Of a stretch of DNA of 7,924 bases, positions 6,417 to 7,924 are shown one piece after another (the stretch's first letter is position 1; each line of letters begins with the position of its first letter). Origin of the DNA: a virus (lineage: Duplodnaviria; Heunggongvirae; Uroviricota; Caudoviricetes). A program made the position numbers and the translations under genes. The DNA lies in IMG/VR virus record IMGVR_UViG_2526164602_000016, one strand, 5' to 3'. The notes under the pieces were generated by a model. It was not told the DNA's origin. It was given only the letters and a program-made list of their open reading frames with translations, and searched no databases.

Positions 6417-7730
6417 ATGGCAGTAAAGATTTCAGGTGTACTGAAAGACGGCACAGGAAAACCGGTAGAGAACTGCACCATTCAACTGAAAGCCAGACGT
6501 AACAGCGCCACGGTGGTGGTGAACACGGTGGCCTCTGAAAATCCGGATGAAGCCGGTCGTTACAGCATGGACGTTGAGTACGGTCAGTACAGCGTCATTC
6601 TGTTGGTGGAAGGATTCCCGCCGTCACATGCCGGGACCATCACCGTGTATGAAGATTCTCAACCCGGTACGCTGAATGATTTTCTCGGTGCCATGTCGGA
6701 GGATGACGTCCGGCCGGAGGCACTGCGTCGTTTTGAACTGATGGTGGAAGAAGCGGCGCGTCACGCTGAGGAGGCGAAGAAGAATGCCGGAGAGGCGGAG
6801 ACGTCCGCGAGGAATGCCGGCATATCAGCCAGTCAGGCAGAAGAGAGCGCGGCAAATGCTGACACTTCAGCAGGGGATGCATTGGAGTCAGCCCGGCAGG
6901 CGGCAGAAAGTGCAGCCGCTGCAAAGCAGTCAGAGGATGCGTCCTCGTCCTCGGCTTCTGCGGCCGCTCAAAAAGCCAGTGAGTCATCACAAAGTGCAGC
7001 AGAAGCTGAATTGTCAAGAAAGACGGCAGAAAGTGCAGCCGGTAATGCAGCCAGGGATGCAACGACCGCAACAGAAAAAGCCCGGGAGTCAGCAGAAAGC
7101 GCACAGTCAGCGGAACAAAGCAGGATAGCGGCGGAAGAGGCCGTAAACCGAATCCCCACCGTGGTGGGGCCTCCCGGGCCAAAGGGGGAACCGGGGCCCG
7201 CGGGTCCTCAGGGGCCGAAGGGAGATAAAGGAGAGCGTGGAGACACCGGCCCGGCAGGGGCAACCGGCGAACGGGGACCGGCAGGTGATGCTGGTCCGGC
7301 AGGCCCGCAGGGGCCGAAAGGTGACAGGGGAGAGCGGGGAGAGACCGGTCTGACGGGAAATGCAGGTCCACAGGGTCCAAAGGGAGATACCGGTGCGGCA
7401 GGCCCGGCAGGCCCACAGGGACCGAAAGGAGAAACAGGTGCGGCTGGCCCGGTGGGGGCAACCGGACCTCAGGGACCGAAGGGCGACCCGGGGGAGACAC
7501 AAATCCGTTTTCGTCTGGGGCCGGCGAGCATTATTGAGACAAACAGCAATGGCTGGTTCCCGGATACAGATGGCGCACTCATCACCGGACTGACCTTTCT
7601 TGACCCCAAAGATGCCACACGGGTTCAGGGTTTTTTTCAGCATTTGCAGGTCAGGTTTGGTGACGGGCCGTGGCAGGATGTTAAGGGGCTGGATGAAGTG
7701 GGCAGTGATACAGGCAGAACAGGAGAATGA
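6417..7730 (+). CDS. stf: Side tail fibre (Stf-like) protein with an Ala/Ser/Glu-rich low-complexity region and a collagen-like Gly-X-Y domain
   Basis: The N-terminus [30 protein letters not shown]...[44 protein letters not shown] matches the lambda Stf N-terminus from memory. The track start at 6411 is a GTG; the ATG at 6417 aligns with lambda. About 36 Gly-X-Y triplets follow, then a 77-aa C-terminal segment. Stop TGA at 7728-7730. Confidence 0.8.
7167..7496 (+). repeat. Collagen-like Gly-X-Y triplet repeat coding region within the stf-like gene
   Basis: Translation [110 protein letters not shown]. The unit GPQGPKG[D/E] recurs five times, so the nucleotide sequence is degenerately repetitive and GC-rich. 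Confidence 0.85.
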
Positions 7731-7731
7731 C

Positions 7732-7924
7732 ATGAACATATTAAAAAAACTTATGCAGCGTCTGTGCGGTTGCGGAAAGCATGATGACCGTGAAAACGGG
7801 CAGTCACTTACAGCACAGCTGCGACTGGGACCGGCAGACATTCTGGAGTCCGATGAGAATGGTATTATCCCGGAGCAGGACAGGGTAATCACGCAGGTGG
7901 TGATACTGGATGCGGATAAAAAGC
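7732..7924 (+). CDS. Hypothetical protein, 3'-partial, possibly an alternative tail-fibre C-terminal module
   Basis: ATG at 7732 lies 1 nt after the stf-like stop and has an AGGAG Shine-Dalgarno sequence at 7721-7725. It is open to the window end (64 codons, MNILKKLMQRLCGCGKHDDRENGQSLTAQLRLGPADILESDENGIIPEQDRVITQVVILDADKK). Residues 30-64 resemble the stf-like segment [34 protein letters not shown]. It is absent from the ORF track because no stop falls inside the window. Confidence 0.5.
   Translation, partial: MNILKKLMQRLCGCGKHDDRENGQSLTAQLRLGPADILESDENGIIPEQDRVITQVVILDADKK

Follow-up and report, generated by a model that had tools for sequence, protein, structure and literature searches.

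Does a short open reading frame (ORF) that repeats the last domain of the tail fibre gene directly in front of it encode a protein of its own and, if so, what could that protein do? The question is raised by a 7,924-nucleotide stretch of viral DNA (Caudoviricetes; IMG/VR record IMGVR_UViG_2526164602_000016), hereafter the window, in which an stf-like side tail fibre gene is followed by the beginning of a small ORF. Both genes carry the fibre C-terminal domain PfC (Pfam PF06820, Phage_fiber_C), referred to here as copy 1 in the fibre and copy 2 in the small ORF. A preliminary description of the window had noticed the repeated motif and proposed a recombination junction, a remnant of cassette exchange or a separately expressed protein as its origin. 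Our analyses confirmed the observation and partly supported the interpretation, and we lean towards the view that the small gene specifies a separately translated, late-made, probably trimeric and dispensable accessory of the fibre tip. The small gene and its duplicated domain are already known, and the finding adds no new entity. What is added here is the strong purifying selection, the finding that copy 2 is an ancient paralogue and no recent scar, and a pairing with the fibre gene that reaches Salmonella phages.

Two homologous PfC domains in neighbouring genes

The small ORF (translation MNILKKLMQRLCGCGKHDDRENGQSLTAQLRLGPADILESDENGIIPEQDRVITQVVILDADKK) lies in the +1 frame relative to stf and runs beyond the end of the window (Table 1). 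The preliminary description was right that it starts one nucleotide after the stf stop behind an AGGAG sequence, that the two motif copies are read in different frames, and that they share roughly 60% nucleotide identity at their start. It had given the leader as 29 residues long; 30 residues precede R-L-G-P-A, and the Pfam domain starts at residue 28. The 64 residues of the window were extended with the corresponding sequence of L001, a relative found in Escherichia coli O157:H7 strain SS52, where the ORF is 89 residues long and 2 of the 64 shared residues differ. Even in its truncated form, the small ORF matched PF06820 with 65.7 bits (gathering threshold 25; E 4.7e-18; profile positions 1-39 of 64), and the same family was present in its full-length relatives according to a precomputed table. 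The fibre matched the entire profile (residues 365-428; positions 1-64 of 64; 124.6 bits; E 2e-36). With 89 residues and no fibre shaft, the small ORF does not place the domain at the C-terminus of a fibre protein, as the name of PF06820 implies, but the family already counts hundreds of members that stand alone, so the missing shaft is not disqualifying.

The preliminary description had allowed for the complete downstream ORF to prove an unrelated protein with no significant alignment. Instead, copy 1 and the full 89-residue ORF aligned with 37% identity over 62 residues (BLASTP, E 2e-14). When the 34-residue parts of both copies inside the window were compared, the local BLOSUM62 score was 69, a value reached by none of 20000 shuffles (mean 16.9, sd 3.3). 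The likeness covers the whole domain of about 60 residues, most of which lies past the window end in copy 2. The two domains are thus homologous. At the DNA level the likeness was weak: nucleotide identity amounted to 27/45 (60%) at the start, 56/99 (57%) over the part inside the window and 97/174 (56%) over the whole domain when the full ORF was taken from L001. The local DNA score was attained by 36 of 2000 shuffles, and a repeat search detected no direct DNA repeat between the two PfC copies. A protein-level likeness combined with 56-60% DNA identity and no DNA repeat points to an old duplication, visible at the protein level, and not to a recent duplication of DNA.

The signals around the small ORF are those of a gene translated on its own. 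A 28-nucleotide junction (GATACAGGCAGAACAGGAGAATGACATG), which includes AGGAG and the ATG, was identical in 63 of 65 related loci, and a Shine-Dalgarno sequence with its start codon one base from the fibre stop would allow translational coupling of the small gene. No promoter was found in the region by a simple consensus scan of L001, so expression of the small ORF appears tied to the late operon. In the same relative, direct folding detected a hairpin followed by a T-run 3′ of the small ORF (-25.1 kcal/mol, z -5.4), which a simple terminator scan had missed. A lipoprotein or secreted protein, suggested by L-C-G-C at residues 11-14, was rejected because the motif has no hydrophobic core in front of it and because the Salmonella orthologues P0179 and P0180 have another residue in place of its second cysteine.

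Conserved pairing and purifying selection

To what extent is this arrangement maintained? Among 80 IMG/VR loci retrieved with the small ORF as query, the order fibre PfC, one-nucleotide spacer and small ORF was found in every locus holding both genes. Of 5426 complete E. coli genomes, 697 contained the fibre PfC (6160 places) and 698 contained the small ORF (6372 places). The two genes thus share the same set of about 697 genomes, some 13% of the total, with a median of ten copies per genome. In addition, 296 phage records carried the small ORF, all with at least 90% protein identity; they comprise long-tailed and short-tailed Shiga toxin (Stx) phages and include short-tailed AU5Stx1 and phage 434. 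Nucleotide diversity was 0.01-0.14 over both PfC-coding regions and rose from 0.04 to 0.33 in the 30 bases past the small-ORF stop, showing that the conserved tail module ends exactly at the stop codon of the small gene. Beyond this point the sequence varies among prophages; type III secretion system effector genes and insertion sequence (IS) elements occur there, and SS52 has a strong hairpin terminator. A scan of species-representative genomes returned only two short contigs, one of them a likely contaminant. The 725-bp contig L002, assigned to Xanthomonas pisi DSM 18956, carried an E. coli prophage fibre end and small ORF with 96-97% protein identity and is almost certainly a contamination of the Xanthomonas assembly.

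We then determined the ratio of non-synonymous to synonymous polymorphism (pN/pS, Nei-Gojobori) in the loci found with the small ORF, where synonymous divergence was about 0.12. The ratio was 0.126 for the whole small ORF, 0.26 for its leader and 0.038 for its PfC part, compared with 0.198 for the fibre PfC. Because a sample drawn with the small ORF could favour a conserved protein, a second sample of 76 loci was drawn with the fibre PfC as query, independently of the small ORF. An intact small ORF was found in 75 of these 76 loci, and pN/pS was 0.18 for the whole ORF, 0.31 for the leader and 0.083 for PfC. The PfC part of the small ORF is therefore under strong purifying selection, and its constraint is stronger than that of the fibre PfC.

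A search of 1.84 billion representative proteins with a hidden Markov model of the domain yielded only 86 clusters, so the PfC family is narrow. One of these clusters was a 79-residue Salmonella enterica protein, which is an orthologue of the small ORF. In Salmonella prophages it follows a 468-residue fibre with PfN, Phage_fiber_2 and PfC and no collagen; the small ORF overlaps the fibre end by 23 nucleotides, has its own AGGAGG and is followed by what looks by eye like a terminator hairpin with a T-run. The small-ORF domains of E. coli and Salmonella were 63% identical, the two fibre PfCs 41%, and the comparisons across paralogues gave 32-40%. The difference between 63% and 41% marks the small ORF as the slower-evolving copy, and these identities gave no sign of conversion between the paralogues. 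As judged from these sequences, the duplication is ancient, and the two lineages had separated before the phages of E. coli and Salmonella diverged.

Altogether, these results bear on each origin put forward in the preliminary description. They do not support a recombination junction or a remnant of cassette exchange: the copies are old paralogues with 56% nucleotide identity, their arrangement is invariant, the mosaic boundary falls immediately 3′ of the small-ORF stop and not between the genes, and the small-ORF copies of E. coli and Salmonella phages resemble each other (63%) more than they resemble the neighbouring fibre domains (32-40%). A separately expressed protein, by comparison, is supported by an own Shine-Dalgarno sequence and ATG in a nearly invariant junction, a fixed length of 89 residues, an ORF intact in all but one locus of the second sample, PfC pN/pS values of 0.04-0.08 and the Salmonella orthologue. 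The broader suggestion of modular tail fibre C-termini held in a general sense, PF06820 being found after collagen in E. coli and after a non-collagen shaft in Salmonella.

Possible roles of the small protein

The small protein belongs to the same family as Sp5 ORF68, RefSeq WP_001023420.1 and PHROG 576. Its RefSeq name is "phage tail fiber C-terminal domain-containing protein"; PHROG 576 ("tail fiber protein") is an 89-position profile that protein P0007 matched over positions 1-89 of 89 (E 3.4e-59). GenBank labels differ, "alternate tail fiber tip" being used in AU5Stx1 and "tail fiber assembly chaperone" in phage 434 (OL657227). In the prophage Sp5 of E. coli O157:H7 Sakai, ORF68 was described as an 89-residue, PfC-only protein (Mondal et al. 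2016, Sci Rep 6:39036, PMC5155283). Systematic in-frame deletions assayed on E. coli K-12 showed that the late gene ORF68 is non-essential while the fibre gene ORF67 is essential, and ORF68 was listed among the genes dispensable for plaque formation and lysogeny; no frameshift signal was found, and a sequence reservoir was proposed (Mondal et al. 2016).

What is known about the domain comes from the fibre. Ghosh et al. (2012, PLoS One 7:e37872, PMC3368898) defined the EPclA architecture as PfN, an Ala/Ser/Glu-rich coiled coil, one collagen domain and PfC. By size-exclusion chromatography with multi-angle light scattering, circular dichroism and electron microscopy, they found that isolated PfC is a trimer, that it forms the distal globule of a dumbbell-shaped molecule and that it re-nucleates the melted collagen helix. 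Trimerisation of PfC and folding of recombinant EPclA in E. coli needed no other phage protein. The same authors proposed that PfC binds the cell surface and reported that E. coli K-12 lacks these collagen-like ORFs; the gene downstream of the fibre is not discussed in their work (Ghosh et al. 2012).

An AlphaFold2 model of the small protein built from a 15-sequence alignment had a mean predicted local distance difference test score (pLDDT) of 77. It placed a helix at residues 3-12 and a compact beta domain at 30-89 (pLDDT about 75-90), and residues 13-29 between them form a disordered linker (14-22 below pLDDT 50). The helix pattern M-x-I-[LF]-K-K-[LI]-x3-L is common to the Salmonella orthologues, in which the linker is 10 residues shorter. 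The top matches of the model in BFVD were tail fibre proteins, and the best structural matches to its PfC domain by two methods were the Mu fibre tips S and S′ (5yvq, 8ju3), one of them with 28% identity over 57 aligned residues. The best Foldseek match in the PDB was to the Mu fibre-chaperone complex 5yvq, chain 5yvq_A (358 residues), which we assume to be the fibre. These weak structure scores fit a fibre-tip domain and do not prove ancestry; sequence searches of the PDB with the single domain and with a profile gave chance matches only.

In the reading that we favour, the small protein would be made late in infection together with the fibre, would probably trimerise through PfC like its paralogue, and may dock on or next to the distal knob, or modulate adsorption, as a dispensable accessory of the tip. 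That the fibre needs it as a chaperone for folding, or that it is kept only as a silent spare, seems improbable. A more specific version, which we put forward tentatively and hold to be less likely than not, is that this free knob paralogue represents a class of fibre-tip partner not characterised before, and that it assembles onto the tip or exchanges into it by PfC-PfC contacts, with the N-terminal helix as a second contact, and thereby alters receptor range or adsorption on natural hosts. Several points weigh against the accessory role as a whole. Purifying selection shows that the protein matters but says nothing on what for, and the many copies per genome can exchange sequence, which blurs the pN/pS estimates. 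Loss of ORF68 had no reported phenotype in Sp5 on K-12 (Mondal et al. 2016), and we found no proteomic or structural study of the small protein. The small-protein model is a monomer from a shallow alignment, and that of the fibre's own PfC (7-sequence alignment) was unusable, with a pLDDT of 51.6. If true, a role as tip partner would be invisible in K-12 plaque assays and yet conserved between E. coli and Salmonella and in both long- and short-tailed virions. Such fibres sit on Stx and effector prophages of enterohaemorrhagic E. coli (EHEC), and tuning of adsorption would affect the spread of virulence genes.

How do other explanations compare with such an accessory? In the lambda map, tfa lies immediately downstream of stf. 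The small ORF is likewise immediately 3′ of stf and could accordingly specify an assembly chaperone that aids folding or trimerisation of the fibre C-terminus, as the phage 434 label has it and as the match to a Mu complex that includes a chaperone might suggest. We consider this role unlikely, since the protein shows no likeness to the Tfa family (Caudo_TAP and relatives), Pfam returning only PF06820 and NCBIfam no match, and since neither recombinant EPclA nor PfC on its own needs it to form trimers in E. coli (Ghosh et al. 2012). In Sp5, moreover, the fibre ORF67 was essential and ORF68 was not on K-12, a strain without these collagen-like ORFs. Rather unlikely, too, is the published idea of a silent cassette, a spare PfC that recombines into the fibre gene and whose protein product is irrelevant (Mondal et al. 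2016). A 14-nucleotide in-frame microhomology, whose core GGGACCGGCAG encodes G-P-A, joins the collagen region to the start of copy 2, and a natural protein, P0063 (L084 4-291), fuses collagen to a small-ORF-type PfC at this very place (GERGPA joined to DILESDENG). However, the 95 residues of P0063 begin at the edge of a contig, the protein is only one among many deletion fusions that end in the small ORF (P0013, P0029, P0065 and P0087 being others), and no full-length fibre with a small-ORF-type PfC appeared among the best 120 of 176 matches (E <= 0.001) in 5.8 billion proteins. A use as DNA only should not give the low pN/pS of copy 2 or a conserved Shine-Dalgarno sequence, ATG and length, 56% nucleotide identity makes a poor substrate for homologous recombination, and the paralogue lineages, already separate when the phages of E. 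coli and Salmonella diverged, have remained apart. The selection, the ancient paralogy and the Salmonella pairing thus argue against both the reservoir idea and the assembly chaperone annotation.

The small protein could also act away from the virion, as a soluble mimic of the tip. A PfC trimer released at lysis or made by the lysogen would bind the fibre receptor or another surface structure and so limit the loss of progeny on debris or keep related phages out. Such a function would suit an unattached copy of a domain proposed to bind the cell surface (Ghosh et al. 2012), a copy that is dispensable for plaque formation (Mondal et al. 2016) and more strongly conserved than the fibre tip itself. 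We nevertheless find it improbable: the protein has no signal peptide, its L-x-G-C at 11-14 has no hydrophobic core and loses the cysteine in P0179 and P0180, its expression appears tied to the late operon in the absence of a promoter by consensus scan (L001), and 37% identity to the fibre tip makes a shared receptor specificity doubtful. The smallest chance by far is given to a recombination junction or decaying remnant of distal-module exchange, a proposal already largely refuted. Tail fibre genes are known to be mosaic, as it would require, but the arrangement is invariant and under selection, its mosaic boundary lies 3′ of the small ORF, and the orthologous Salmonella pair has a different junction. 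The same low standing applies to its variant, a fusion of fibre and small ORF by programmed frameshifting, for which the frame of the small ORF, open for 46 codons 5′ of its ATG, and a run of seven T inside the fibre PfC (7631-7637) could speak. This run was present in only 43 of 80 loci and was not seen in the Salmonella fibre PfC region, the last sense codon before TGA, GAA, would not be expected to be slip-prone, and no signal was reported by Mondal et al. (2016).

Specific mechanisms were also considered and rejected. A prfB-like +1 frameshift at GAA-TGA-C with the AGGAG would require re-pairing from GAA to AAU, which seems implausible, the Shine-Dalgarno spacing appears to differ, and no signal was found by Mondal et al. 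(2016). The T7 run is not conserved, and slippage there was discarded for this reason. A diversity-generating retroelement was dismissed, the copies being only 56% identical and L001 having no annotated reverse transcriptase in the 9 kb to either side.

Surroundings of the locus and comparison with known systems

Table 1. Positions of the small ORF, the fibre gene and neighbouring features in the window
Feature	Position	Strand	Basis or remark
Small PfC-only ORF	7732..7924	+	cut at window end after codon 64; 89 aa in relatives
Small-ORF leader (aa 1-30)	7732..7821	+	predicted amphipathic helix aa 3-12, then variable linker
PfC copy 2	7813..7924	+	Pfam from aa 28; RLGPAD from 7822; about 75 nt more past window
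Shine-Dalgarno AGGAG	7721..7725	+	6 nt 5′ of small-ORF ATG, within last stf codons
stf stop TGA	7728..7730	+	one spacer base next (C 7731)
Fibre PfC (PF06820 Phage_fiber_C), copy 1	7503..7694	+	RLGPAS from 7512
Stf-like side tail fibre, EPclA architecture	6417..7730	+	437 aa from ATG 6417; Pfam and translation
Collagen-like Gly-X-Y region of fibre	7167..7499	+	translation, Pfam Collagen, repeat families D1/D2/D5
14-nt microhomology ACGGGGACCGGCAG in collagen-coding region	7271..7284	+	repeat family D8; same frame (G-P-A)
Microhomology partner ACTGGGACCGGCAG, start of PfC copy 2	7824..7837	+	repeat family D8
Host-specificity protein J	2210-5685	+	split by frameshift
Lom	5753-6352	+

The window is the distal tail region of an EHEC-type lambdoid prophage, with the last two genes of the tail module at its end. 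On the + strand it contains, in this order, the end of gpL, a K-like C40 peptidase, gpI, J, Lom, the stf-like fibre and the start of the small ORF. Its closest DNA match over positions 7400-7924 among complete E. coli genomes was the SS52 prophage adjoining the trp operon, with 99% identity across the final 525 bases and about 94% across J-lom-stf. J was read as two ORFs (2210-2653 and 2650-5685) with a break near 2633, caused by a one-base deletion relative to the intact 1158-residue gpJ of the SS52 prophage; this reflects either a defective prophage or a sequencing error.

The fibre showed phage_tail_N (PF08400, residues 3-135, E 8.7e-69), Collagen (PF01391) and PF06820 in Pfam. PfN, a low-complexity coiled coil, a single collagen domain and PfC, within 437 residues, make it an EPclA protein, and the EPclA entries in Table 2 of Ghosh et al. 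(2012) have the same length. A mechanical ORF call begins at GTG 6411 and gives 439 residues. The T-run inside its PfC-coding region is polymorphic, with T7 in 43, T6 in 23 and an interrupted run in 14 of 80 loci, and this variation alters residues in the Q-G-F-F segment of the domain. Many chimeric proteins (P0142, P0149, P0150, P0152, P0154, P0156 and P0158) have unrelated N-termini (repressor, DUF1737, portal, IS66 and others) in front of the fibre PfC, the join falling no more than a few residues from DTDGALITG. A recombination hot spot at this place was rejected, the one traced example (L170) being a 769-bp k127 metagenome contig; chimeras that arose in assembly, at the boundary of a repeat, are the likelier source of the joins. 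Finally, P0145, an unrelated phage fibre-like protein of 565 residues, has four tandem repeats resembling the latter half of PfC (for example VVVLDADA...ILQVRRADGTWMEIPALKG) and, behind them, a collagen region; the C-terminal half of PfC may be a reusable beta unit beside collagen in other phages.

Downstream of the module, RefSeq annotates a 67-nucleotide "tail assembly protein" pseudogene fragment directly 3′ of the small ORF of SS52 (L001 9603-9669), which overlaps the terminator hairpin and is followed by IS1. Extra partial copies of the 3′ half of the small ORF, about 78% identical, were found 0.8-2.4 kb downstream, past the genes directly 3′ of the small ORF, in L020 (4048-4116) and L066 (3954-4100) and also in L021, L026, L028-L030, L078 and L082. 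Such copies resemble footprints that cassettes would leave on inserting where the tail module ends. In the Salmonella locus L087 (3193-6240), a GDSL-lipase-like gene precedes the PfC-ended fibre, and downstream of the fibre come SopA-like and NleG-like effector genes. The layout of a tail fibre end followed by effector cargo holds in Salmonella prophages too.

Several known systems resemble this locus in part. The Mu G segment, the P1 C segment and the e14 pin region likewise place two alternative fibre C-terminal domains side by side. Unlike in these systems, both PfC copies lie on the + strand and copy 2 has its own start codon, so that any switch would need a deletion rather than an inversion. 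No invertase was annotated within 9 kb downstream in L001 or among the called genes of L087 and L089, inverted repeats not having been searched. Lambda Tfa, Mu U/U′ and P2 G are likewise small, directly 3′ of a fibre gene and at the end of a late operon, and like them the small protein could associate with the tip. They have, however, no sequence relationship to the small ORF; and, unlike with Tfa-type proteins, the fibre folds without the small protein and the small gene is dispensable where the fibre is essential. The PfC of EPclA and EPclB is homologous to the small ORF (E 2e-14) and is a proven trimerisation domain and distal knob, whereas the small ORF has no shaft, carries a 30-residue leader with a predicted helix, retains 37% identity and evolves more slowly. 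The closest system is that of Sp5 ORF68. Phage and prophage copies of this type are 90-98% identical to the query ORF, the window copy being 96-98% identical over its 64 residues; they are 89 residues long, consist of a leader and PF06820, and start one base after the fibre stop, as in the window. In Sp5 the upstream fibre is of the longer EPclB type and the phage is short-tailed, whereas the window combines an EPclA fibre with a lambda-like long-tailed prophage that also has J and lom; otherwise nothing substantial differs between the two.

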